Source: Escherichia phage vB_EcoM_G8
Length of the DNA: 64,000 bases
Strand: one strand, 5' to 3'
Sequence record: NC_054915.1
Shown: in pieces, positions 1 to 63,628 of the stretch
How the letters are laid out: the number at the start of each line of letters is the position of its first letter
Position numbering within the stretch: the first letter of the stretch is position 1
Program-made: the position numbers and the translations under genes
Notes under the pieces: generated by a model
Database searches by the model: none
The model's input: only the letters and a program-made list of their open reading frames with translations
Told to the model about the DNA's origin: nothing

Positions 1-1412
<1,412 letters not shown>

Positions 1413-1440
1413 TATTAAAGCATATTAAAGAGGATTAAAA

Positions 1441-3420
1441 ATGACTTTATTATCTCCGGGCATTGAGCTCAAAGAAACTACGGTTCAAAGCACCGTGGTT
1501 AATAACTCTACTGGTACAGCAGCTTTGGCCGGTAAATTCCAGTGGGGTCCTGCTTTTCAGATTAAACAGGTTACAAACGAAGTAGATTTAGTTAATACTT
1601 TTGGTCAACCAACCGCTGAAACTGCTGACTATTTTATGTCTGCGATGAATTTCTTGCAGTACGGAAATGACTTACGAGTAGTTCGTGCTGTCGATAGAGA
1701 TACCGCTAAAAACTCATCTCCGATTGCCGGTAATATTGAATACACTATTTCTACCCCAGGTAGTAACTACGCGGTTGGAGATAAAATCACTGTCAAATAT
1801 GTTTCAGATGATATTGAAACTGAAGGTAAAATTACTGAAGTAGACGCAGATGGAAAAATTAAGAAAATTAATATTCCTACTGCAAAAATTATCGCTAAAG
1901 CGAAAGAAGTCGGTGAATATCCAACACTAGGTTCTAACTGGACTGCAGAAATTTCTTCCTCTTCCTCTGGTTTAGCTGCAGTAATAACTCTTGGAAAAAT
2001 TATTACTGATTCTGGTATTTTATTAGCTGAAATTGAAAATGCTGAAGCTGCTATGACAGCTGTTGACTTTCAAGCAAGTCTCGAAAAATATGGAATTCCA
2101 GGAGTAGTAGCTCTTTATCCAGGCGAATTAGGCGATAAAATTGAAATTGAAATCGTATCTAAAGCTGACTACGCAAAAGGAGCTTCTGCATTACTCCCAA
2201 TTTATCCGGGCGGTGGTACTCGTGCATCTACTGCTAAAGCAGTGTTTGGATATGGACCGCAAACTGATTCGCAGTACGCTATTATAGTTCGTCGTAATGA
2301 TGCTATTGTTCAAAGCGTTGTTCTTTCAACTAAGCGTGGTGAAAAAGATATTTACGATAGTAACATCTATATCGATGACTTTTTCGCAAAAGGCGGCTCA
2401 GAATATATTTTCGCAACTGCACAAAACTGGCCAGAAGGCTTCTCTGGAATTTTAACTCTGTCTGGTGGATTATCATCAAATGCTGAAGTAACAGCAGGAG
2501 ATTTGATGGAAGCTTGGGACTTCTTTGCTGACCGTGAATCTGTTGACGTTCAACTGTTTATTGCGGGTTCTTGTGCCGGTGAATCTTTAGAAACAGCATC
2601 TACTGTCCAAAAACACGTCGTTTCAATCGGGGATGCTCGCCAAGATTGCTTAGTATTGTGCTCTCCTCCGCGTGAAACTGTAGTTGGAATTCCTGTAACT
2701 CGTGCAGTAGATAATTTAGTTAACTGGAGAACTGCAGCAGGTTCATACACTGATAATAACTTTAATATCAGTTCAACCTACGCAGCAATCGACGGCAACT
2801 ACAAATATCAGTATGACAAATATAATGATGTGAATCGTTGGGTTCCATTAGCAGCTGATATTGCTGGTTTATGCGCAAGAACTGATAACGTATCTCAGAC
2901 TTGGATGTCTCCAGCTGGTTATAATCGTGGTCAGATTCTTAACGTTATTAAACTGGCTATTGAAACTCGCCAGGCTCAGCGCGACCGTTTATACCAAGAA
3001 GCTATCAACCCAGTAACTGGTACAGGTGGTGATGGTTACGTATTGTATGGTGATAAAACAGCTACTTCTGTTCCTTCTCCATTTGATCGTATTAACGTTC
3101 GTCGTCTGTTTAATATGTTGAAAACGAATATCGGACGTAGTTCAAAATATCGTTTGTTCGAATTAAACAACGCGTTTACTCGTTCATCATTCCGCACAGA
3201 AACTGCCCAGTACTTACAGGGAATTAAAGCTCTCGGTGGAATTTATGAATATCGTGTAGTTTGCGATACAACAAATAACACTCCGTCAGTAATTGATAGA
3301 AATGAGTTTGTTGCAACATTCTACATCCAACCTGCACGCAGTATAAATTATATCCAACTTAACTTCGTTGCGACTGCTACTGGTGCAGATTTCGATGAGT
3401 TGACTGGTCTTGCAGGTTAA
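1441..3420 (+). CDS. 18: tail sheath protein gp18
   Basis: 659 aa ORF, ATG after AAAGAGG; length and sequence T4 gp18-like; follows gene 17 as in T4. Confidence 0.93.
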   Translation: MTLLSPGIELKETTVQSTVVNNSTGTAALAGKFQWGPAFQIKQVTNEVDLVNTFGQPTAETADYFMSAMNFLQYGNDLRVVRAVDRDTAKNSSPIAGNIEYTISTPGSNYAVGDKITVKYVSDDIETEGKITEVDADGKIKKINIPTAKIIAKAKEVGEYPTLGSNWTAEISSSSSGLAAVITLGKIITDSGILLAEIENAEAAMTAVDFQASLEKYGIPGVVALYPGELGDKIEIEIVSKADYAKGASALLPIYPGGGTRASTAKAVFGYGPQTDSQYAIIVRRNDAIVQSVVLSTKRGEKDIYDSNIYIDDFFAKGGSEYIFATAQNWPEGFSGILTLSGGLSSNAEVTAGDLMEAWDFFADRESVDVQLFIAGSCAGESLETASTVQKHVVSIGDARQDCLVLCSPPRETVVGIPVTRAVDNLVNWRTAAGSYTDNNFNISSTYAAIDGNYKYQYDKYNDVNRWVPLAADIAGLCARTDNVSQTWMSPAGYNRGQILNVIKLAIETRQAQRDRLYQEAINPVTGTGGDGYVLYGDKTATSVPSPFDRINVRRLFNMLKTNIGRSSKYRLFELNNAFTRSSFRTETAQYLQGIKALGGIYEYRVVCDTTNNTPSVIDRNEFVATFYIQPARSINYIQLNFVATATGADFDELTGLAG

Positions 3421-18758: not shown

Positions 18759-19508
18759 ATGGCAAACATTATTCGTTGTAAATTACCAGATGGTGTTCAT
18801 CGTTTTAAACCATTTACGGTAGAAGATTATCGAGATTTTTTGTTAGTTCGAAACGATATAGAACATCGGTCACCACAAGAACAAAAAGAAATAATTACTG
18901 ATTTAATTGATGATTATTTTGGAGACTATCCGAAGACTTGGCAACCATTTATATTTTTGCAGGTATTTGTAGGGTCAATAGGTAAAACTAAAGTACCGGT
19001 CACATTTGTATGTCCAAAATGTAAAAAAGAAAAGACAGTTCCATTTGAAATATATCAAAAAGAATTAAAGGAACCTGTTTTTGATGTAGCTAATGTTAAA
19101 ATTAAATTAAAGTTTCCTTCTGAGTTTTATGAAAATAAAGCAAAGATGATTACTGAAAATATTCATTCTGTTCAAGTAGATGAAACTTGGTATGATTGGA
19201 AGGAAATTAGCGAATCAAGTCAAATAGAACTCGTTGACGCCATCGAGATAGAAACATTAGAACAAATTCTCGATGCAATGAATCCTATTAATTTAACTCT
19301 ACATATGTCATGCTGTAATAAGTACATTAAAAAATACACTGATATAGTAGACGTGTTTAAGCTATTAGTTAACCCAGATGAGATATTTACTTTTTATCAA
19401 ATTAATCACACACTCGTAAAAAGTAATTATAGCTTAAATTCAATAATGAAAATGATTCCTGCTGAGCGCGGATTCGTATTAAAACTGATTGAGAAGGATA
19501 AACAATAA
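18759..19508 (+). CDS. 51: baseplate hub assembly protein gp51
   Basis: 249 aa after late promoter and AAAGGAG. Confidence 0.85.
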
Positions 19509-20683
19509 TGAGTATGTTGCAACGCCCCGGATATCCAAATCTCAGCGTTAAATTATTTGATAGCTACGACGCTTGGAGTAATAATAGATTTGTTGAATTA
19601 GCTGCTACTATTACCACATTAACTATGCGGGATTCTCTTTATGGCCGAAATGAAGGAATGCTGCAGTTTTATGATTCTAAAAACATCCATACAAAAATGG
19701 ATGGAAATGAAATAATTCAGATTTCTGTAGCTAATGCAAATGATATTAATAATGTTAAAACACGAATTTATGGATGTAAGCATTTTTCCGTGTCAGTAGA
19801 TTCAAAAGGCGATAACATCATTGCTATTGAATTGGGAACTATTCATTCTATAGAAAATCTTAAATTTGGTAGACCATTTTTCCCTGATGCAGGTGAATCT
19901 ATAAAAGAAATGCTTGGTGTCATTTATCAGGATCGCACATTATTAACTCCAGCGATAAATGCTATAAATGCTTATGTTCCTGATATTCCATGGACTAGCA
20001 CATTTGAAAACTATTTGTCATATGTAAGAGAAGTTGGTCTAGCTGTAGGAAGTGACAAATTTGTATTTGTGTGGCAAGACATCATGGGAGTTAACATGAT
20101 GGACTATGATATGATGATAAATCAAGAACCATATCCAATGATTGTCGGTGAGCCATCTTTAATAGGTCAATTCATCCAAGAATTAAAATACCCATTAGCA
20201 TATGATTTCGTTTGGTTGACTAAATCGAATCCTCACAAACGTGACCCAATGAAAAATGCTACTATCTATGCGCATTCATTTTTAGATTCTTCATTACCAA
20301 TGATTACTACAGGAAAGGGTGAAAACTCTATTGTAGTGTCAAGGTCAGGTGCTTATTCTGAAATGACTTATAGGAATGGATATGAAGAAGCTATTCGTCT
20401 TCAAACTATGGCACAATATGACGGTTATGCTAAATGTTCTACTGTCGGTAATTTTAACTTGACTCCTGGTGTTAAAATTATTTTTAATGATAGTAAAAAT
20501 CAATTTAAAACCGAATTTTACGTTGATGAAGTCATCCATGAATTATCCAATAATAATTCAGTAACTCATCTATATATGTTCACTAATGCAACGAAACTGG
20601 AAACAATAGACCCAGTTAAGGTTAAAAATGAATTTAAATCTGATACTACCACTGAAGAAAGTAGTTCTTCCAATAAGCAATAA
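19508..20683 (+). CDS. 27: baseplate hub protein gp27
   Basis: 391 aa, ATGA overlap with gene 51. Confidence 0.9.
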
Positions 20684-21216
20684 AGAAGTTTCTATTCCTA
20701 AAATGGGTCTTAAACACTATAACATTTTAAAAGATGTTAAAGGTCCTGATGAAAATTTAAAACTTCTTATTGATTCTATTTGTCCGAATTTATCACCGGC
20801 AGAAGTTGATTTCGTTTCTATTCATTTATTGGAATTTAATGGAAAGATTAAATCTCGTAAAGAAATAGATGGCTATACTTATGACATTAATGATGTTTAT
20901 GTATGCCAAAGATTAGAATTTCAATGGCTATACTTATGACATTAATGATGTTTATGTATGCCAAAGATTAGAATTTCAATACCAAGGAAACACATTTTAT
21001 TTTAGACCTCCTGGAAAATTTGAACAATTTTTAACGGTGAGCGATATGTTATCTAAATGCTTACTTAAGGTCAATGATGAAGTTAAAGAAATTAATTTTC
21101 TTGAGATGCCAGCATTCGTTTTAAAATGGGCAAATGATATTTTTACAACTTTAGCAATTCCTGGCCCTAATGGTCCAATAACTGGAATTGGCAATATTAT
21201 TGGATTATTTGAATGA
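20628..21216 (+). pseudogene. 28: baseplate hub gene 28 interrupted by a frameshift (55-bp tandem duplication)
   Basis: ATG 20628; frame 0 ends WLYL-stop at 20937-20939; remainder in +1 frame to TGA 21214-21216 overlapping gene 29 ATG; removing one 55-nt unit restores a 177-aa ORF. Confidence 0.8.
20871..20980 (+). repeat. perfect 55-bp tandem duplication (2 units) inside gene 28
   Basis: 20871-20925 and 20926-20980 both ggctatacttatgacattaatgatgtttatgtatgccaaagattagaatttcaat. Confidence 0.95.
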
Positions 21217-22985
21217 AAAAGCCACAAGAAATGCAAACGATGCGTAGAAAAGTTATTTCAGATAATAAACCAACACAGGAAGCGGCTAAATCCGCTTCCA
21301 ACACTTTATCTGGACTTAACGATATATCTACGAAATTGGATGATGCTCAAGCTGCTTCTGAATTAATTGCTCAAACTGTCGAAGAAAAATCGAATGAAAT
21401 AATTGGAGCAATTGACAATGTAGAAAGCGCAGTGAGTGATACTACTGCCGGTTCTGAGTTAATTGCTGAAACTGTCGAAATTGGCAACAATATTAATAAA
21501 GAAATCGGTGAATCACTCGGGAGCAAATTAGATAAATTAACAAGTTTACTAGAGCAAAAAATTCAGACAGCTGGAATTCAACAGACGGGAACTAGTTTAG
21601 CCACGGTTGAAAGCGCTATTCCTGTTAAAGTCGTTGAGGATGATACTGCCGAATCTGTGGGTCCTTTATTACCAGCTCCTGAAGCAGTTAATAATGATCC
21701 TGACGCTGATTTTTTCCCTACCCCTCAACCAGTTGAACCCAAACAAGAATCACCAGAAGAAAAACAGAAAAAAGAAGCATTTAACTTAAAATTATCACAA
21801 GCTTTAGATAAATTAACAAAGACAGTTGATTTTGGATTTAAGAAATCCATTTCAATTACTGATAAAATATCAAGCATGCTATTTAAGTACACCGTCAGTG
21901 CTGCTATTGAAGCCGCTAAAATGACTGCAATGATATTGGCTGTTGTTGTTGGAATAGATCTGTTGATGGTTCATTTTAAATACTGGTCAGATAAATTTTC
22001 AAAAGCCTGGGATTTATTTAATACTGACTTTACTAAATTCTCTAGCGAAACCGGAACGTGGGGTCCTTTATTACAGAGCATCTTTGGTTCTATTGATAAA
22101 ATTAAGAAGCTGTGGGAAGCTGGAGACTGGGGCGGATTGACAACAGCTATTGTCGAAGGACTTGGAAAGGTTCTTTTTAATTTAGGAGAGCTTATTCAAC
22201 TTGGAATGGCTAAATTATCTGCGGCAATTCTTCGAGTTATTCCTGGTATGAAGGATACTGCTGATGAAGTAGAAGGAAGAGCACTAGAAAATTTCCAAAA
22301 TACTACAAATGCTTCTCTTAGCAAAGAAGACCAAGAAAAAGTTGCAAATTATCAATATAAAAGAATGAATGGCGATCTTGGTCCAATAGCAAAAGGGCTA
22401 GACAAAATTGCGAACTGGAAAACTCGTGCATCTAACTGGATTCGTGGTGTTGATAATAAAGAAGCACTAACGACTGATGAAGAGAGAGCAGAGGAAGAAG
22501 AAAAATTAAAGCAACTTTCTCCGGAGGAAGCTAAAATTGCTTTAATGAAAGCTAATGAAGCTCGTGCTGCTATGAATCGTTTTGATGAATACGCTAATTC
22601 AGCTGATATGAGTAAAGACTCAACGGTTAAATCAGTTGAAGCTGCTTATGAAGATCTTAAAAAACGGATGGATGACCCGGATTTAAATAATTCACCGGCA
22701 GTTAAAAAAGAACTTGCTGCTAGATTTTCTAAAATTGATGCTACTTATCAAGAGCTCAAGAAAAATCAGCCTAATGCCAAACCTCAAACTTCTGCTAAAT
22801 CGCCAGAAGCGAAACAGGTCCAGGTTATTGAAAAGAACAAAGCACAGCAAGCTCCTGTTCAGCAAGCATCTCCTTCAATCAATAATACTAATAATGTTAT
22901 TAAGAAAAATACTGTCGTTCATAATATGACACCTGTCACAAGCACAACTGCTCCTGGTGTATTTGATGCGACTGGAGTTAATTAA
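21213..22985 (+). CDS. 29: baseplate hub / tail length determinator gp29
   Basis: 590 aa. Confidence 0.9.
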   Translation: MKKPQEMQTMRRKVISDNKPTQEAAKSASNTLSGLNDISTKLDDAQAASELIAQTVEEKSNEIIGAIDNVESAVSDTTAGSELIAETVEIGNNINKEIGESLGSKLDKLTSLLEQKIQTAGIQQTGTSLATVESAIPVKVVEDDTAESVGPLLPAPEAVNNDPDADFFPTPQPVEPKQESPEEKQKKEAFNLKLSQALDKLTKTVDFGFKKSISITDKISSMLFKYTVSAAIEAAKMTAMILAVVVGIDLLMVHFKYWSDKFSKAWDLFNTDFTKFSSETGTWGPLLQSIFGSIDKIKKLWEAGDWGGLTTAIVEGLGKVLFNLGELIQLGMAKLSAAILRVIPGMKDTADEVEGRALENFQNTTNASLSKEDQEKVANYQYKRMNGDLGPIAKGLDKIANWKTRASNWIRGVDNKEALTTDEERAEEEEKLKQLSPEEAKIALMKANEARAAMNRFDEYANSADMSKDSTVKSVEAAYEDLKKRMDDPDLNNSPAVKKELAARFSKIDATYQELKKNQPNAKPQTSAKSPEAKQVQVIEKNKAQQAPVQQASPSINNTNNVIKKNTVVHNMTPVTSTTAPGVFDATGVN

Positions 22986-22993
22986 GGAATAAT

Positions 22994-24088
22994 ATGGCAA
23001 TTGTTAAAGAAATAACTACTGATTTAATTAAAAAGTCCGGTGAGAAAATTTCAGCCGGACAGAGCACTAAATCAGAAGTAGTAACTAAAACATACACTGC
23101 CCAGTTTCCAACTGGGCGTGCTAGTGGTAATGACACTACAGGGGACTTCCAGGTAACAGATCTGTATAAGAATGGATTATTATTTACTGCATACAATATG
23201 TCATCTAGGGATTCTGGAAGTCTTAGATCGATGAGATCTAACTACTCTTCTTCATCTTCGAGTATTTTAAGTACAGCTAGAAACACTATTAGTAGTACAG
23301 TATCAAAACTATCAAATGGATTAATATCAAATAATAATTCAGGAACAATAAGTAAAGCTCCTGTCGCAAACATTCTTTTACCGAGATCTAAATCTGATGT
23401 TGACACATCATCACATAGATTTAATGATGTTCAAGAAAGCCTTATTAGTAGAGGCGGAGGTACTGCTACTGGTGTGCTAAGTAATATTGCTTCAACCGCA
23501 GTATTTGGGGCACTGGAAAGTATAACACAAGGTATAATGGCTGATAATAATGAGCAGATTTATACGACAGCCAGAAGTATGTACGGTGGCGCTGAAAATA
23601 GAACTAAAGTGTTTACATGGGATTTGACTCCACGTTCAACAGAAGATTTAATGGCTATTATTAATATCTATCAATATTTTAACTATTTTTCTTATGGTGA
23701 AACAGGTAAATCTCAATACGCTGCTGAAATAAAGGGGTATTTAGATGATTGGTATCGTTCTACGTTAATTGAACCTTTATCTCCGGAAGACGCAGCTAAA
23801 AATAAAACACTATTTGAGAAAATGACAGCAAGTTTAACGAACGTTCTTGTAGTTTCAAACCCGACAGTTTGGATGGTGAAAAACTTTGGTGCAACATCTA
23901 AGTTTGATGGAAAAACGGAAATATTTGGTCCATGCCAAATACAGAGCATTAGATTTGATAAAACACCTAATGGTAACTTTAACGGATTAGCTATTGCTCC
24001 AAACCTCCCTAGTACATTTACTCTCGAGATTACTATGAGAGAAATTATCACGTTAAACCGTGCTTCTTTATATGCGGGGACTTTTTAA
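22994..24088 (+). CDS. 48: baseplate tail tube cap gp48
   Basis: 364 aa. Confidence 0.88.
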   Translation: MAIVKEITTDLIKKSGEKISAGQSTKSEVVTKTYTAQFPTGRASGNDTTGDFQVTDLYKNGLLFTAYNMSSRDSGSLRSMRSNYSSSSSSILSTARNTISSTVSKLSNGLISNNNSGTISKAPVANILLPRSKSDVDTSSHRFNDVQESLISRGGGTATGVLSNIASTAVFGALESITQGIMADNNEQIYTTARSMYGGAENRTKVFTWDLTPRSTEDLMAIINIYQYFNYFSYGETGKSQYAAEIKGYLDDWYRSTLIEPLSPEDAAKNKTLFEKMTASLTNVLVVSNPTVWMVKNFGATSKFDGKTEIFGPCQIQSIRFDKTPNGNFNGLAIAPNLPSTFTLEITMREIITLNRASLYAGTF

Positions 24089-25011
24089 TGTATTCTTTAG
24101 AGGAATTTAATAATCAAGCAATAAACGCAGATTTCCAACGTAATAATATGTTTAGCTGCGTTTTTGCAACAACTCCATCAACTAAAAGCTCTTCGTTGAT
24201 AAGTTCAATTAGCAACTTTTCTTATAATAACTTGGGCCTAAATTCAAATTGGTTAGGATTAACTCAAGGTGATATTAATCAGGGAATTACCACGCTAATT
24301 ACAGCTGGCACACAAAAACTAATAAGAAAATCAGGAGTCAGTAAATATCTTATTGGTGCCATGAGTCAACGTACTGTCCAGAGTTTATTAGGATCATTTA
24401 CAGTCGGTACATATTTAATCGATTTCTTTAATATGGCGTATAATTCATCTGGATTGATGATATATTCTGTAAAAATGCCAGAGAATAGATTATCCTATGA
24501 AACTGACTGGAACTATAATTCTCCTAATATTCGTATAACTGGGAGAGAATTAGACCCTTTGGTTATTTCATTTAGAATGGATTCAGAAGCTTGTAACTAT
24601 CGTGCAATGCAAGACTGGGTTAACTCCGTTCAAGACCCAGTAACTGGACTACGTGCTTTGCCGCAAGATGTCGAGGCAGATATTCAGGTTAATCTTCATT
24701 CTCGTAATGGATTGCCTCATACTGCGGTGATGTTCACCGGATGCATTCCAATATCAGTGAGCGCTCCTGAGTTATCATATGATGGAGATAACCAAATAAC
24801 TACATTTGATGTTACTTTTGCGTATAGAGTGATGCAGGCTGGAGCAGTTGATAGGCAAGCTGCGCTTGAATGGCTTGAATCTGCTGCTATAAATGGTATT
24901 CAAAGCGTTCTCGGAAATAGTGGAGGTGTTACTGGACTATCTAATTCGCTTTCACGACTCAGTAGACTAGGAGGAACCTCAGGAAGCATTTCAAATATTA
25001 GTATACTATGA
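24088..25011 (+). CDS. 54: baseplate tail tube initiator gp54
   Basis: 307 aa, TAATG overlap with gene 48. Confidence 0.85.
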   Translation: MYSLEEFNNQAINADFQRNNMFSCVFATTPSTKSSSLISSISNFSYNNLGLNSNWLGLTQGDINQGITTLITAGTQKLIRKSGVSKYLIGAMSQRTVQSLLGSFTVGTYLIDFFNMAYNSSGLMIYSVKMPENRLSYETDWNYNSPNIRITGRELDPLVISFRMDSEACNYRAMQDWVNSVQDPVTGLRALPQDVEADIQVNLHSRNGLPHTAVMFTGCIPISVSAPELSYDGDNQITTFDVTFAYRVMQAGAVDRQAALEWLESAAINGIQSVLGNSGGVTGLSNSLSRLSRLGGTSGSISNISIL

Positions 25012-25059
25012 CAGGGATTGTCAATTCGCAGAGTAAAATATTAGGAGCAATATAACAAC

Positions 25060-25090
25060 GGGGACCTTTCGGTCCCCATATTTTTATTTG
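25060..25090. terminator. bidirectional terminator between gene 54 and alt.-3
   Basis: GGGGACC-TTTC-GGTCCCC then ATATTTTTATTT. Confidence 0.7.
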
Positions 25091-25374
25091 CGGAATGAAA
25101 TGAAAGCAGAAACTGAAGCAACTAAACTGTCTTCAATATAAACTTCAATTTTTACCGGAGCTTCTGACTCAAATTTACCTGTTACTACACCCTGAAAAAT
25201 ACTTTCAGTCTGTTCTGGCTTTGAAAAATTTTCAGAAGGAAAAATTCCAAACTTTTTATCTGTTCCGAAAATTTTGATAAATTCATCATAAACTGCTTCA
25301 TTAAAAGCATTATCAGCAGGAATAACGCCTTCAACTACAAGTTCTTGACCTAAAAAGCGTAAAGAAGATTTCAT
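25084..25374 (-). CDS. alt.-3: hypothetical protein (alt.-3 position)
   Basis: 96 aa; preceded by promoter/stem-loop cassette and SD GAGGA. Confidence 0.7.
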   Translation of the reverse strand: MKSSLRFLGQELVVEGVIPADNAFNEAVYDEFIKIFGTDKKFGIFPSENFSKPEQTESIFQGVVTGKFESEAPVKIEVYIEDSLVASVSAFISFRK

Positions 25375-25795: not shown

Positions 25796-27844
25796 TTATC
25801 CTTGAACGAACTTGTAAGGCATGTTTGCAATATCTATGCAAGACGCAATAATTCCAAGAGATGATTCTACTTTCTGTTTAACATTTGATGAAACAAATGA
25901 TGCAAAGTCAACTCTATCTTCTATATCACCTGTCATTGTAACCAATTCACCAGTTTCCATTAAACGGTCACCGTCATAAATTACCGATTCGGTGAGTTCT
26001 TCTGTGGTCATAACTTCAGCTTGAATAAGCTTGTTGTTAGTTCTAACTGTTCCATCGTTGTAAGATGCATCGGTTATTTTATTAACTTTGACCATTAATC
26101 CACGTGGCAAAATGACTTCCATTTCATTTGAAGGCGCTAAACTTCCACCGGGTAAAACAACATTGACCTTATCAGCCCCAGTAATAACCCATCCAATTCC
26201 AACTAAATTATCACTAGAATTTACAAGTCCTTCATCAGTTTTATCAATAGAAACACTTAAACGCTTTTCGTCTGGTAAAACACCCACAGATGAATCAGTC
26301 ATCCAAGTACCAAAAATATTTGGATATAATGATGTTGACACAAAGTTTCTAAAATAAAAAACTCGATTTTTTACCATTGCTTCATATATTGAAGGTAACA
26401 TTCGTTGTGAACGATACAAAGTAATACCTTTTGGTAATCGTTCACCATTTTTAAAGGCTGAATCTAAATTATCAATGGCTTGTTCTATTTCAGGTGCTGT
26501 TAAAATACTTGTACGCTCATCTGGATTATATAATCCCAAAAGAGCATTATTCATGTCTACATATCCTGAACCTACATATTCACGAATTCCGCGTTTTTGC
26601 GCTGGTGTGTATTTAGATGAATCTTTATTTTCGACTATAGGATGTAATGACCATCCAGCGGTAAGAGCATATCCACGTAATTCTCTTCGAATAATCTTTG
26701 TTTTTATTGCATTCCAAGAATTTTGTACTAACTCATTTGCAGCATCTTGGTTTAAATGCGAATGTCTGTTAATATTTCTTTCAAACCAAGCACCTTTATA
26801 TTTTTCTAAAGTATCATCAACTATAGAAGCAATAGTTTCTAAAGTTTTTATTGAAGTAATAGATTCTTTTCGTAATCTTTCTAAAGCTTTATTTTTTATT
26901 TCTGCATTAATAATGGATTCTTTATCTTCAGGAATTATAGAAGCTTCTCTGAATGCCATTCCAGCTGTAACACTACTAAGAGCATTCTCTAATGCAAATC
27001 CTGAAGTAGAAATAACAGTTAATTCATTAGCGTCAGAAATTAAAGGAGCGTCCGCTGGTTTATTTAATTCTGCCGCTGAAGCCTCAAATTTTTGAAACAT
27101 CGGTGTTTCAAATCTAGAAGATTCCAATGACTGACTTTGTGCAATTGCTCTACGGGAAATTTTAACTTTAACGATTACAGCTTGGTCAGAACGTTTATCA
27201 TTTTCTTGTGCAATAGATGCTGCAATTGCCTCATTTTTAGTTACTTGAGCTCCAGTATCTTTATTGATATAAACATCACCGACCTTCGATTCAACTTTAG
27301 TAAAGAGCTCGGTACTAATTTCCGGAACCCCTGGAATGTCTTCTAGTGATACATTTTTGCGATGTATAAGAATATATGCATACTTTTTATCATAATCCCA
27401 GAGTTCCTTAAGAAGGACGTATCTGCCACCTGAACGACTACGGATAAGTCTATCAGCAATAACTTGAATTTGTCGAGCTTGACCGGCGGTTTTAGACTTA
27501 AGAATACGAAGCATACAAGCATCAATTTTATACTGACGCATTGTTTGCATTGCAACAGTAAAAACCGAATTGATATAATTAATTGGGCTTGGACCAAGAC
27601 CTTTCAATTTAGCAATTGAACCTTTAGCGGTTAATGTAAAAGGAACAATATGCATCATTTTATCGCCCATCTTTAAATCACGATTAGTATCACCTCCAGA
27701 TGTATAGGTACATAAACGAAAGCCTGGTTGTTCAATTGCGTCATCAACATGAACTGAAAAAATTTGCGGTATTTTCTTCTTTGGATTTAAGTTTGTAATC
27801 GGAAGAGTAGTATCTTCGTCAAATAATTCTGTAATTAGTTCCAT
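25796..27844 (-). CDS. alt: ADP-ribosyltransferase Alt (capsid-packaged)
   Basis: Track ORF is 683 aa; second Met gives 682 aa starting MELITELFDE; late promoter TATAAATA upstream. Confidence 0.9.
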   Translation of the reverse strand: MELITELFDEDTTLPITNLNPKKKIPQIFSVHVDDAIEQPGFRLCTYTSGGDTNRDLKMGDKMMHIVPFTLTAKGSIAKLKGLGPSPINYINSVFTVAMQTMRQYKIDACMLRILKSKTAGQARQIQVIADRLIRSRSGGRYVLLKELWDYDKKYAYILIHRKNVSLEDIPGVPEISTELFTKVESKVGDVYINKDTGAQVTKNEAIAASIAQENDKRSDQAVIVKVKISRRAIAQSQSLESSRFETPMFQKFEASAAELNKPADAPLISDANELTVISTSGFALENALSSVTAGMAFREASIIPEDKESIINAEIKNKALERLRKESITSIKTLETIASIVDDTLEKYKGAWFERNINRHSHLNQDAANELVQNSWNAIKTKIIRRELRGYALTAGWSLHPIVENKDSSKYTPAQKRGIREYVGSGYVDMNNALLGLYNPDERTSILTAPEIEQAIDNLDSAFKNGERLPKGITLYRSQRMLPSIYEAMVKNRVFYFRNFVSTSLYPNIFGTWMTDSSVGVLPDEKRLSVSIDKTDEGLVNSSDNLVGIGWVITGADKVNVVLPGGSLAPSNEMEVILPRGLMVKVNKITDASYNDGTVRTNNKLIQAEVMTTEELTESVIYDGDRLMETGELVTMTGDIEDRVDFASFVSSNVKQKVESSLGIIASCIDIANMPYKFVQG

Positions 27845-27867
27845 CATATCCTCTCTAGTGTTTATTC

Positions 27868-36674: not shown

Positions 36675-36970
36675 TTACATTTATCCTCTTTTAACTCTTG
36701 ACGATAATAACATATCATAGTTTTCTGGTCATGTACATATCGTTTTACATCATTAAGCCAAATACGAAATTCCTGGGAATCTTCAAATGGCATACCGACC
36801 CAAGCTTTACCATCGATAACTTTAACTTGCCAAGATAGTTTAGCTTCATCATATGACTTTATTTGTACAGGCCAATTAGGATGAACTGTTTCTTTCTTTA
36901 CTTCTAGAGGCTTTGTAGAACAACCAACTAGAAGACCAATAGATAATATTACTGCTGATAGTTTAATCAT
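36671..36970 (-). CDS. predicted small lipoprotein
   Basis: 99 aa; N-terminus MIKLSAVILSIGLLVGCSTK has signal peptide with lipobox LVGC. Confidence 0.65.
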   Translation of the reverse strand: MIKLSAVILSIGLLVGCSTKPLEVKKETVHPNWPVQIKSYDEAKLSWQVKVIDGKAWVGMPFEDSQEFRIWLNDVKRYVHDQKTMICYYRQELKEDKCK

Positions 36971-37320
36971 TTAGAAAGGTCCTGGATGTCTTCTGCGAAC
37001 TTGTTGAAGGAGTTGTTGATTTGTTTTTCAACCAATCCTGGCTTATGAGCCACCACATCCGCCTTCTTTGCGTCTTTGCGCAGTTTTTCATTTTCACGCT
37101 CAATAGCAGCAATTGCCTCACGATTTTTATTATTCATCGCATCAATATAATTATACTGAATTCGCAAATTATTTAATGCTAAGGCGTTTTCATTGGCCGT
37201 TTTTGTAATTTCTACAACAGACGTTTCTAATCTTTCAATTTTATTTTTTAAAATTAAAGAAGTTCCGCCTAATGCAATTACAATTAATAGCAAACCTGTT
37301 GTCGTATTACTTAATTGCAT
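36967..37320 (-). CDS. predicted single-pass membrane coiled-coil protein
   Basis: 117 aa; hydrophobic segment GLLLIVIALGGTSLIL then heptad-rich region; overlaps alc stop. Confidence 0.6.
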   Translation of the reverse strand: MQLSNTTTGLLLIVIALGGTSLILKNKIERLETSVVEITKTANENALALNNLRIQYNYIDAMNNKNREAIAAIERENEKLRKDAKKADVVAHKPGLVEKQINNSFNKFAEDIQDLSK

Positions 37321-59737: not shown

Positions 59738-62700
59738 ATGGCTACTTTAAAACAAATACAATTTAAAAGAAGCAAAATCGCAGGTGCACGTCCTGCTGAT
59801 TCAGTATTAGCCGAAGGTGAATTGGCTATAAACTTAAAAGATAGAACACTTTTTACTAAAGATGATTCAGGAAATATCATCGATTTGAGCATTTCTGCTG
59901 GTGGTAATATCAGTGGAAATATCACTCAAACTGGTAATTATTTACAAAATGGAACATATAATCTTAATGGAAACCAGTTTGTTTATGCAGGAAGATATAT
60001 TGAATTTTTACCTAAAACAGCTGGTAATGGCGCTTGGGCAAATCAACACCTAAATAAAGCTCCTATCTTTACAGATTTAAGTTCAGCTACTTCTGTTTCA
60101 GAATACCATCCGTTGATTAAACAACGCTATAAAGATGGAACTTTTTCATTAGGTACTTTAGTTTCTGAAGGTTCATTAAAATTCCATTACATTAATGAGG
60201 CAGGTGAATCTAAATATTGGACGTTTGCGCGCTCAGGTAATTTTCAAGTTGATTCTGGTAATTTATTAGTATCTGGTGGGTATTTAGTCGCTCATAGTAA
60301 TATTGAAACAAGAACAGGTTCTTTGATTGGTCCATCTGTTATAACTAAAAATATTTCATTTGATACAAAAGCATTCGGACAGTATGATTCACAGTCATTA
60401 GTTCAATATGTTTATCCTGGAACAGGTGAAGAAAATGGTATAAACTATCTTCGTAAAGTTCGAGCTAAATCAGGTGGAACCATTTACCATGAAATCGCTT
60501 CAGCTCAAACTGGTAAGAATGATGAAATTTCTTGGTGGACAGGAAATATACCTACTACTAAATTAATGGGTCTTCGTAATGATGGAGCAATGGTATTACG
60601 TCGTTCGCTTGCTATTGGCACAATTACCACTGACGAAAATACTAACAACTATGGCTCTCCTACTCCAATGGGAGAAAGATATATTGCTTTGGGCGATGCT
60701 GCCACTGGTTTAAAATACATTAAGCAGGGTGTTTATGATTTAGTAGGTAATTGGAATTCTGTTGCTTCTATTACTCCTGACAGTTTCCGTAGTACTCGTA
60801 AAGCATTATTTGGACGTTCAGAAGACCAAGGCGGAACCTGGACAATGCCTGGAACGAACGCTGCTCTCTTGTCTGTTCAAACTCAGGCAGATGTGAATAA
60901 CGCAGGCGATGGTCAAACCCACATTGGATATAATTCTGGCGGTAAATTTTCCCATTATTTCCGCGGTAAAGGCCAAACCAACATTAATACACAAGAAGGT
61001 ATGGAAGTTAACCCTGGTATTTTGAAATTGGTAACTGGTTCTAATAATGTACAGTTTTATGCTAACGGAACAGTATCTTCAATACAAAGAATTAAATTTG
61101 ATAATGGATTAGTTCTTACTGGTGCTAGACCCGATGGTATTCAACTTGACGCTCCTACAACAACAGATGGCACTAAAACTATACTGTGGGCTGGTGGTAC
61201 TCGCCCAGGTCAGAATAAAAGTTATGTATCTATCAAAGCATGGGGTAATGCCTTTAACGCATCTGGCGATCGTTCCCGTGAAACAGTTTTTGAGGTAGGT
61301 GATGGGCAAGGTTACCATTTTTATTCTCAACGTGTAGCTCCTGCGCCTGGTTCGACTGTCGGGCCTATTCAACTTCGAGTTAATGGTGGTTTATTGACTT
61401 CAGGTAGTATTGTTGCTTCTGGTTCTATTACAACCGAATCTTCTTTGAGTGTTAATAACGGCATGTCAGTAAACGGCCAAGTTAAAATCGGCGGAACGGC
61501 AGATAATTTCCGTATCTGGAACTCTCGTTATGGTGCCATTTTCCGTCGCTCCGAAACATCATTATATATTATCCCAACTAATGAAAATGAAGGGGAAAAC
61601 GGTGCAATAAGCAACCTTCGTCCGTTTAGTATTGAGTTAGGCACCGGCTCTGTTGTAATGGGAAACCATACTCAAGCGGGTAAAAACCTTTTCACGGTTG
61701 ATAACGTTTCTAAATTAGTACAAACTGATGTTCGTTTCCGTGTTAACATGGATTCCGACGGTATTGTTTTGAATGCTTCTTCTCAAGCAGCGTCTAACTT
61801 TATCCAAGGACGTAAAGCGGATGTTACAAAATGGTATCTCGGTATTGGCGACGGTGGTAACGTTGTTCGTTTACATAACTATACTTATTCCCACGGTATT
61901 GCATTAAACTCTGATACTGTAGATATTACTAAGCCTCTTAAAATTAATAATATTCGAATTGGTACAGATGGCAACATCACAGGTGGTACTGATAATTTTG
62001 CCAATTTAAATACAACGTTAAACAATAAAGTCAATGTTGGTGGTTGGTCAGGCGGAGCTACAACTGGGTGGTATAAGTTTGCGACAGTTAATATTCCTCA
62101 ATCTACTGGAACAGTATCATTTAAAATATATGGTGGTTCAGGATTTAATTTTAAAAGATATGGGCAAGCTTCTGTCGCAGAAATAATTCTTAGAACTGGA
62201 AATAATCCTAAAGGACTTAATGCCACACTATGGAACAGAACTTCTGAAGCATTTTCACAAATTGCCACAGTTAACACGAGCAATGATACATATGACGTTT
62301 ATGTTTATGTGGGAGGATATTCAAATGCTTTAGTCATCGAATATTCATGCACCAGTAATAGTACAGTAACCGTAGTCGGTCTTAACGGAGGAATTCAACC
62401 TATTGTTGAAACACTTCCAGAAGGTCATGTAGTAGGTAAAACTGTAAGATTATTGAATAACATCGATGGAATGTTTGCTGCTGGCGAATCTGATGTTGTT
62501 ACTCGTGGTGAATTTGTTACCAATAACCAAAAAGGTTTACGTATTAAATCTAGAGGTAATGATATTGATTCGAATGCTGCTATCATTCGAAATGATGGTG
62601 GAAGTTTTTATATTTTAGCTACAGACAAGAATACGTCAGAAAAACCCAATGCGGCTAGTGGTGATTGGAATAATTTAAGACCTTTCTCCATTAATATGGC

Positions 62701-63628
62701 TGATGGTCGCGTTGGTATGAACCATGGTCTAAATATTACCGGCGGTGGCTTGAATGTTACTGGTGGCTTGAATGTTACTAGTGGTAATACTAGTTTAGGT
62801 AATATCTCGTCTCGTGTAGTAGCAGGTTGGCGAGGAGCGTCTGGTTGGGCTGATAACTCGGATACAATGAAATCTAAAATCACCTTTATGGCAGACCATG
62901 GGGATTTATCTAATTCAGGCAGTTATTATCCTATTGTAGGTGCATACAGTAACTACGGCTCGGCGGGTTATCGTCAAACCTTTGAGTTCGGATGGGTCGG
63001 TTCCGGCACTACAGCGGGTTGGCGCGATGGTATTATTCGTATTCGCGGAGATAATGCTAATGGCCAGCAAGCAAGATGGCGCTTTACAATGGACGGTACT
63101 TTAGATTGCCCTGGTAAAGTACTGCTACCACAAACAGGTGCCTTTGGTGTCAATACATCAAATGGTCTCGGTGGAAATAGTATAACATTTGGTGATAGCG
63201 ATACCGGTATTAAGCAAAATGGCGATGGATTATTAGACATATATGCGAACAATGTGCAAGTGTTCCGTTTCCAAAATGGTGATTTGTACTCATATAAAAA
63301 TATAAATGCTCCAAACGTTTATATTCGTTCTGATATTCGTTTAAAATCCAACTTTAAGCCTATCGAAAATGCACTTGATAAAGTTGAAAAACTTAACGGT
63401 GTCATTTACGATAAAGCTGAATACATCGGTGGAGAGGCAATTGAAACTGAAGCGGGTATTGTGGCCCAAACGTTACAAGACGTTTTACCAGAAGCTGTCC
63501 GTGAAACAGAAGACAGCAAGGGTAATAAAATACTCACTGTTTCTTCTCAAGCCCAGATTGCTCTTCTGGTTGAAGCTGTGAAAACACTTTCTGCTCGTGT
63601 AAAAGAACTTGAATCTAAACTTATGTAA
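59738..63628 (+). CDS. 37: long tail fibre distal subunit gp37 with C-terminal intramolecular chaperone domain
   Basis: 1296 aa; N-terminus MATLKQIQFKRSKIAGARPAD; C-terminus …YIRSDIRLKSNFKPIENALDKVEKLNGVIYDKAEYIGG… resembles S74-type autoproteolytic chaperone. Confidence 0.9.
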   Translation: MATLKQIQFKRSKIAGARPADSVLAEGELAINLKDRTLFTKDDSGNIIDLSISAGGNISGNITQTGNYLQNGTYNLNGNQFVYAGRYIEFLPKTAGNGAWANQHLNKAPIFTDLSSATSVSEYHPLIKQRYKDGTFSLGTLVSEGSLKFHYINEAGESKYWTFARSGNFQVDSGNLLVSGGYLVAHSNIETRTGSLIGPSVITKNISFDTKAFGQYDSQSLVQYVYPGTGEENGINYLRKVRAKSGGTIYHEIASAQTGKNDEISWWTGNIPTTKLMGLRNDGAMVLRRSLAIGTITTDENTNNYGSPTPMGERYIALGDAATGLKYIKQGVYDLVGNWNSVASITPDSFRSTRKALFGRSEDQGGTWTMPGTNAALLSVQTQADVNNAGDGQTHIGYNSGGKFSHYFRGKGQTNINTQEGMEVNPGILKLVTGSNNVQFYANGTVSSIQRIKFDNGLVLTGARPDGIQLDAPTTTDGTKTILWAGGTRPGQNKSYVSIKAWGNAFNASGDRSRETVFEVGDGQGYHFYSQRVAPAPGSTVGPIQLRVNGGLLTSGSIVASGSITTESSLSVNNGMSVNGQVKIGGTADNFRIWNSRYGAIFRRSETSLYIIPTNENEGENGAISNLRPFSIELGTGSVVMGNHTQAGKNLFTVDNVSKLVQTDVRFRVNMDSDGIVLNASSQAASNFIQGRKADVTKWYLGIGDGGNVVRLHNYTYSHGIALNSDTVDITKPLKINNIRIGTDGNITGGTDNFANLNTTLNNKVNVGGWSGGATTGWYKFATVNIPQSTGTVSFKIYGGSGFNFKRYGQASVAEIILRTGNNPKGLNATLWNRTSEAFSQIATVNTSNDTYDVYVYVGGYSNALVIEYSCTSNSTVTVVGLNGGIQPIVETLPEGHVVGKTVRLLNNIDGMFAAGESDVVTRGEFVTNNQKGLRIKSRGNDIDSNAAIIRNDGGSFYILATDKNTSEKPNAASGDWNNLRPFSINMADGRVGMNHGLNITGGGLNVTGGLNVTSGNTSLGNISSRVVAGWRGASGWADNSDTMKSKITFMADHGDLSNSGSYYPIVGAYSNYGSAGYRQTFEFGWVGSGTTAGWRDGIIRIRGDNANGQQARWRFTMDGTLDCPGKVLLPQTGAFGVNTSNGLGGNSITFGDSDTGIKQNGDGLLDIYANNVQVFRFQNGDLYSYKNINAPNVYIRSDIRLKSNFKPIENALDKVEKLNGVIYDKAEYIGGEAIETEAGIVAQTLQDVLPEAVRETEDSKGNKILTVSSQAQIALLVEAVKTLSARVKELESKLM

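Follow-up and report, generated by a model that had tools for sequence, protein, structure and literature searches.

The 55-bp tandem duplication in gene 28 of the Escherichia phage vB_EcoM_G8 record: very probably an assembler overlap left untrimmed

In the genome record of Escherichia phage vB_EcoM_G8 (MK373787, 169,650 bp), gene 28 includes a perfect tandem duplication of 55 bp, and the reading frame is broken there. The gene product, gp28, is a component of the baseplate hub (PMC3004832). The question is whether the virus carries a disrupted hub gene, or whether the disruption exists only in the deposited sequence. The window analyzed here is the whole stretch of 64,000 nt that corresponds to positions 96,001-160,000 of this record, and coordinates are those of the window unless stated otherwise. 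The preliminary description of this DNA, based on the letters of the window, left three options: the duplication may be recent, it may come from the assembly, or it may be a mutation that needs suppression.

The duplicated unit and the reading frame of gene 28

Genes 27, 28 and 29 stand in T4 order. The features of the locus are as follows.

19508 to 20683, plus strand: gene 27, baseplate hub protein gp27, 391 aa, with Pfam Phage-tail_1/2; gene 28 starts within its 3' end
20628 to 20939, plus strand: gene 28 as deposited, 103 aa, consisting of native residues 1-99 followed by WLYL (QBQ80072.1 / YP_010069484.1)
20871 to 20925, no strand: first copy of the 55-bp unit, made up of codons 82-99 of gene 28 and the first base of codon 100
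20926 to 20980, no strand: copy 2 of the 55-bp unit, adjoining copy 1 at 20925/20926
20926 to 21216, plus strand: the rest of gene 28, codons 82-177 and the stop codon, in the +1 frame relative to the ATG at 20628
21037 to 21216, plus strand: an ORF of 59 aa called mechanically from a GTG, equal to gp28 residues 119-177
21213 to 22985, plus strand: gene 29, tape measure/hub protein, 590 aa (QBQ80074.1); its ATG overlaps the TGA of gene 28 (ATGA)

The Pfam domain of the gene 29 product in relatives is T4_Tape_measure.

Direct comparison of the window sequence showed that 20871-20925 and 20926-20980 are byte-identical, with no spacer between them. TRF calls the repeat at 20869-20980 with a period of 55, 2.0 copies, 100% matches and a score of 224. 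Both results agree with the identity reported in the preliminary description. In the full record, the duplication occupies 116,871-116,980. The unit reads GGCTATAC...TTTCAAT, and the sequence around the junction is ...AGAATTTCAAT up to 20925 and GGCTATACTT... from 20926 on. At the edges of the repeat, the identity extends by two bases leftward ("AT") and by none rightward. This is the only near-perfect tandem duplication with a period of 15-200 in the 64-kb window, and record positions 96,001-169,650 (73,650 bp) contain one such junction. Identity over 55 bases would arise by chance with negligible probability, estimated at about 64,000 x 0.3^55.

Gene 28 is frameshifted in the record, since 55 is not divisible by 3. 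The course of the frames is as previously described: the frame from the ATG at 20628 stops at 20937-20939 after 103 codons (...EFQWLYL*), and the +1 frame carries gene 28 onward until a TGA (21214-21216) that overlaps the start codon of gene 29 (ATG, 21213). The translation of the remainder in the +1 frame is NGYTYDINDVYVCQRLEFQYQGNTF...GLFE*. Deletion of one unit gives, again as described, a single ORF of 534 nt and 177 codons. The preliminary description gave this length for T4 gp28, and the database entry GP28_BPT4 is indeed 177 aa long.

The identification of the gene as gene 28 is confirmed by its match to the Pfam family PF11110 (Phage_hub_GP28). The restored gp28 covers profile positions 1-154 of 154 with 358.8 bits and an E-value of 3e-108. 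The deposited 103-aa product covers positions 1-78 of 154 only, and the 59-aa GTG ORF covers positions 97-154. The interpretation of this short ORF as a separate gene was rejected, as it is the C-terminal part of gp28. The restored ORF thus resembles T4 gp28, the distal subunit of the baseplate hub and likewise a PF11110 protein, in its length of 177 aa and in covering the full profile, whereas the ORF as deposited ends at 103 aa with half of the domain. The gp28 proteins of T2 and of RB32-type phages are identical to the restored G8 gp28. The true gene 28 is almost certainly 20628-20925 joined to 20981-21216, intact and with 177 codons.

Gene 28 in related phages and the search for the junction

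A query of 1001 bases from the gene 28 region matched 504 phage records. Among the matches listed, 946 bases are matched in each, which corresponds to the single-copy form. The gp27 sequence of G8 is found, identical, on at least 24 independent contigs, with an intact gene 28 next to it in each. In ten independent contigs with identical gp27, gene 28 is single-copy in all ten. The restored G8 gp28 shows 100% amino acid identity to these relatives (10/10), and all nucleotide differences are at third codon positions. An exact protein look-up found the restored sequence on at least 1000 contigs and the 103-aa form on one contig. Gene 28 is under strong purifying selection and otherwise undamaged, because the amino acid identity is complete, the changes are restricted to third positions and the same protein is present on at least 1000 contigs. 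The comparison with gene 28 of related phages, which the preliminary description had suggested, therefore gave the single-copy form among the matches listed and the single-copy, in-frame form in the ten contigs.

The junction itself was searched for with a query of 40 nt centred on it, neither half of which alone can seed the 28-base word of megablast. It has no match in 50,697 phage records. As a positive control, the junction of a similar duplication in phage vB_EcoM_R5505 (see below) was searched in the same way and found its own record only, so the method works. In IMG/VR, the exact G8 junction is present on one contig, which is G8's own (IMGVR_UViG_2974742932_000001), and on no other. It was not found in JGI metagenomes or in 5,426 complete E. 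coli genomes. Exact look-ups of the G8 gp29 and gp38 proteins led to the NCBI record only, a collection of gene positions contained neither gp29 nor the truncated gp28, and no second assembly of G8 was found by these look-ups.

These results bear on the reading in which the duplication is real, having arisen recently by strand slippage and being carried by the majority of the DNA molecules in the lysate that was sequenced, as a null or near-null allele. The two copies are perfect, as expected of a very recent event, and the 2-bp match at the edges could be the microhomology used in slippage. The otherwise undamaged state of gene 28 fits a very recent event or an artefact alike. Against this reading, an independent isolate or assembly with the junction was sought in the phage records, IMG/VR, the JGI metagenomes and the E. 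coli genomes, and none was found. Gene 28 was reportedly among the hub genes that Kikuchi and King defined in T4 in 1975 with conditional-lethal mutants. A lethal allele in the majority cannot persist in a plaque-propagated stock with normal tailed virions. According to the source paper, G8 was isolated, propagated and imaged, and it showed the A2 morphotype with normal tails, the head measuring 86 x 115 nm and the tail 104 nm (PMC6563267). Such virions do not agree with a hub gene that carries a null allele. The length of the unit and the sibling genome described in the next section also count against a real duplication, which we consider very unlikely.

A real duplication might also be tolerated if the ribosome recoded it, by a +1 frameshift, by a bypass like that of gene 60, or by production of a split gp28 from two polypeptides. 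A translational bypass of 50 nt is known in T4 gene 60, which gives the idea a precedent among T4-like phages. The sequence offers some material for it. The Leu codon TTA precedes the TGA stop (20934-20939), and a second TTA in the correct frame lies 28 nt downstream (20965-20967); in a hopping reading, these could serve as the take-off and landing codons. No RF2-like slippery site precedes the stop, and since the insert occurs in no relative, there is no conservation of it. Conserved inserts or signals of programmed recoding were sought among the 504 matching phage records, and none was found, those listed being single-copy. The R5505 duplication, which lies in gene 10, would require a second, independent recoding system. 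A +1 frameshift or bypass was therefore rejected as unsupported, with no slippery motif, no conservation and the gene 10 case left unexplained. The split into two polypeptides was rejected as well: the GTG at 21037 is the first ATG, GTG or TTG of the +1 frame, and a second polypeptide starting there would miss residues 100-118. Tolerance of a real duplication by any of these three routes is vanishingly improbable. That G8 DNA physically contains the duplication and that functional gp28 is still made through ribosomal hopping or other recoding is extremely improbable; if true, hopping in gene 28 would be the second translational bypass in a T4-like phage.

Assembly of the record and the sibling genomes

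The G8 genome was published by Korf et al. 2019 (Viruses 11:454), whose Table S4 gives MK373787, 169,650 bp and 606.5x coverage (PMC6563267). As described in that paper, SPAdes 3.12.0 "(55kmer)" was the assembler for the Illumina data, every phage in the study yielded a single contig, and T4-like assemblies were afterwards rearranged to match published phages (PMC6563267). The period of the repeat, 55, equals the k of SPAdes stated there, and this exact coincidence is a further point against a natural duplication. The study used PacBio/HGAP as well as Illumina/SPAdes, and the accessible text of the paper does not state the platform used for G8 (PMC6563267), which is a point against the artefact reading. 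We infer that G8 belongs to the Illumina/SPAdes genomes and that a trimming step was skipped for it.

The layout of the record indicates that it was rotated. A protein-based locus search placed position 1 of the G8 record at the rIIA stop codon, and the record ends 11 nt past the rIIB ATG. Straight from the assembler, a permuted genome would begin at any position; this record begins at rIIA/rIIB, and it was therefore re-opened after assembly.

If the duplication is a product of the pipeline, recurrence in a sibling genome is predicted. It was found in vB_EcoM_R5505 (MK373786, the adjacent accession), the one T4-like sibling screened; the 50 genomes of the study include roughly 20 further T4-like ones. 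This record carries a perfect 55-bp tandem duplication at 86,685-86,795 (36886-36996 of the piece L031 used here), inside gene 10. The whole 167,317 bp contain no other near-perfect tandem duplication with a period of 15-299. Gene 10 is annotated as two overlapping CDSs, R5505_00174 and R5505_00175, and removal of one unit restores an ORF of 602 codons. The layout is like that of G8: the stop codon of rIIA opens the record (CDS complement 1..2178), the rIIB ATG is followed by 11 nt to the end of the record, and its final 60 nt are the same as the final 60 nt of the G8 record. The two cases thus share the study, the pipeline, the layout, the period of 55 and a frameshift in an essential baseplate gene, and each duplication is unique to its own record. 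They differ in position, gene 10 versus gene 28, as expected if the break made by the assembler is arbitrary. It is not credible that natural duplications of exactly length k arose independently in two viable phages of one study and disrupted an essential baseplate gene both times.

The third genome of the study considered here behaves differently. In vB_EcoS_PTXU06 (MK373789), of 45,904 bp, the first 42,321 bp are free of any 55-bp duplication. The artefact is thus not universal among the genomes of the study, and its absence from 42 of 45.9 kb of PTXU06 is a point against the artefact reading. PTXU06 is not T4-like, and its assembly may have been handled differently. The size of this genome is itself inconsistent between sources, as Table S4 gives 42,321 bp and the GenBank record has 45,904 bp.

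The G8 assembly was also considered as error-prone in general, and this was rejected. The other indels relative to R5505 with a length not divisible by 3 either form compensated pairs or are intergenic. The compensated pairs lie in divergent stretches, and gene 54 is the single exception. In gene 54 (24088-25011), G8 has a 2-nt insertion "TA" at about 25001 relative to R5505, which shortens the product from 321 to 307 aa; the coding sequence of the conserved C-terminal peptide TMTGIVNSQSKILGAI goes on in a different frame. The short allele is common to at least ten independent phage genomes, where it aligns gap-free, and because of this sharing the short form is a natural allele and not an error. 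It resembles the gene 28 duplication in being an indel of a length other than a multiple of 3 in a G8 baseplate gene. The extent and distribution are different: the gene 54 allele costs the last 14 residues and is seen in at least ten genomes, whereas the gene 28 duplication is seen in one record only.

Two further observations were made in the window. At 25796-27847, a single alt-like ADP-ribosyltransferase ORF (683 aa) of G8 stands in the place of two adjacent ones annotated in R5505 (21097-25245 of the piece L032); this looks like ordinary variation of gene content in Tequatrovirus. At 59738-63628, an ORF for a gp37-like distal tail fibre protein, 1296 aa as delimited, has no exact copy in a collection of 15 billion proteins, and its neighbours gp34 and gp38 do have exact copies in the same collection. 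The annotated start of the gp37-like ORF may differ, or its adhesin region may be unique to G8.

Origin of the duplication and its consequences

The sequence of events that we propose is the following. The circularly permuted genome of G8 would have been assembled by SPAdes with k = 55 into a single contig that began and ended with the same 55 bases, which is the form in which SPAdes outputs a closed circle. By chance, the break introduced by the assembler would have fallen inside gene 28. The sequence would then have been re-opened at the rIIA/rIIB junction for collinearity with published T4-like genomes, with the overlap copy kept. The former contig ends would thereby have been brought together at 20925/20926, generating the perfect 55-bp tandem duplication. 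One of the two units would be the redundant SPAdes end overlap and would be absent from the phage DNA.

An end overlap of this kind has been described for another phage. For the T4-like phage 132, assembled with SPAdes v3.12.0, overlapping ends of "55 bp" were trimmed before re-opening (PMC8483715). Phage 132 and G8 are alike in the assembler version, the type of genome, the 55-bp overlap and the re-opening to a T4 reference. They differ in that one end was trimmed in phage 132, whereas both copies are retained in G8, side by side in gene 28. The Phage Annotation Guide also notes that assembly redundancies may end up within a contig (PMC8785237).

It is very probable (about 0.96) that the duplication in gene 28 stems from an assembler overlap that was not trimmed when the contig was rotated, and that it is a database error rather than biology. 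This reading is favoured because the length equals k, the record is rotated, a sibling carries the same signature, the junction is unique and the gene is undamaged. The 2-bp "AT" match at the edges counts against it to the extent that it equally fits natural slippage. Another kind of artefact is a possible source, such as a misjoin of two contigs sharing a k-mer overlap, an error of scaffolding or polishing, or a library chimera. Adjacent de Bruijn contigs share ends of length k, so that their end-to-end joining looks alike, and 55 bp fits this as well. The source paper reports a single contig for every phage (PMC6563267), and R5505 has exactly one junction, as predicted by a single closure of a circle; both speak against these sources, which are highly unlikely. 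The biological verdict is unchanged whichever artefact is responsible.

Of the three options in the preliminary description, the assembly artefact is thus retained, and the recent duplication and the mutation needing suppression are set aside in view of the match to k, the rotation and the sibling. Its headline, that an essential gene is frameshifted, holds for the database record and very probably does not hold for the virus.

The duplication has no biological significance of its own, and its value is for curation and method. MK373787 is the sole member listed for the species Tequatrovirus geeight (taxonomy lookup), and gp28 is falsely truncated both in this record and in the RefSeq copy of it (QBQ80072.1 / YP_010069484.1). 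MK373786, with a falsely split gp10, is a second record needing correction. The false gp28 and gp10 products spread to protein databases (UniRef A0A482N3E3), where they could pass for pseudogenes or recoding sites. When a perfect tandem duplication in a circular or circularly permuted genome has the length of a common assembler k (21, 33, 55, 77, 99 or 127), it should be presumed an artefact until reads decide.
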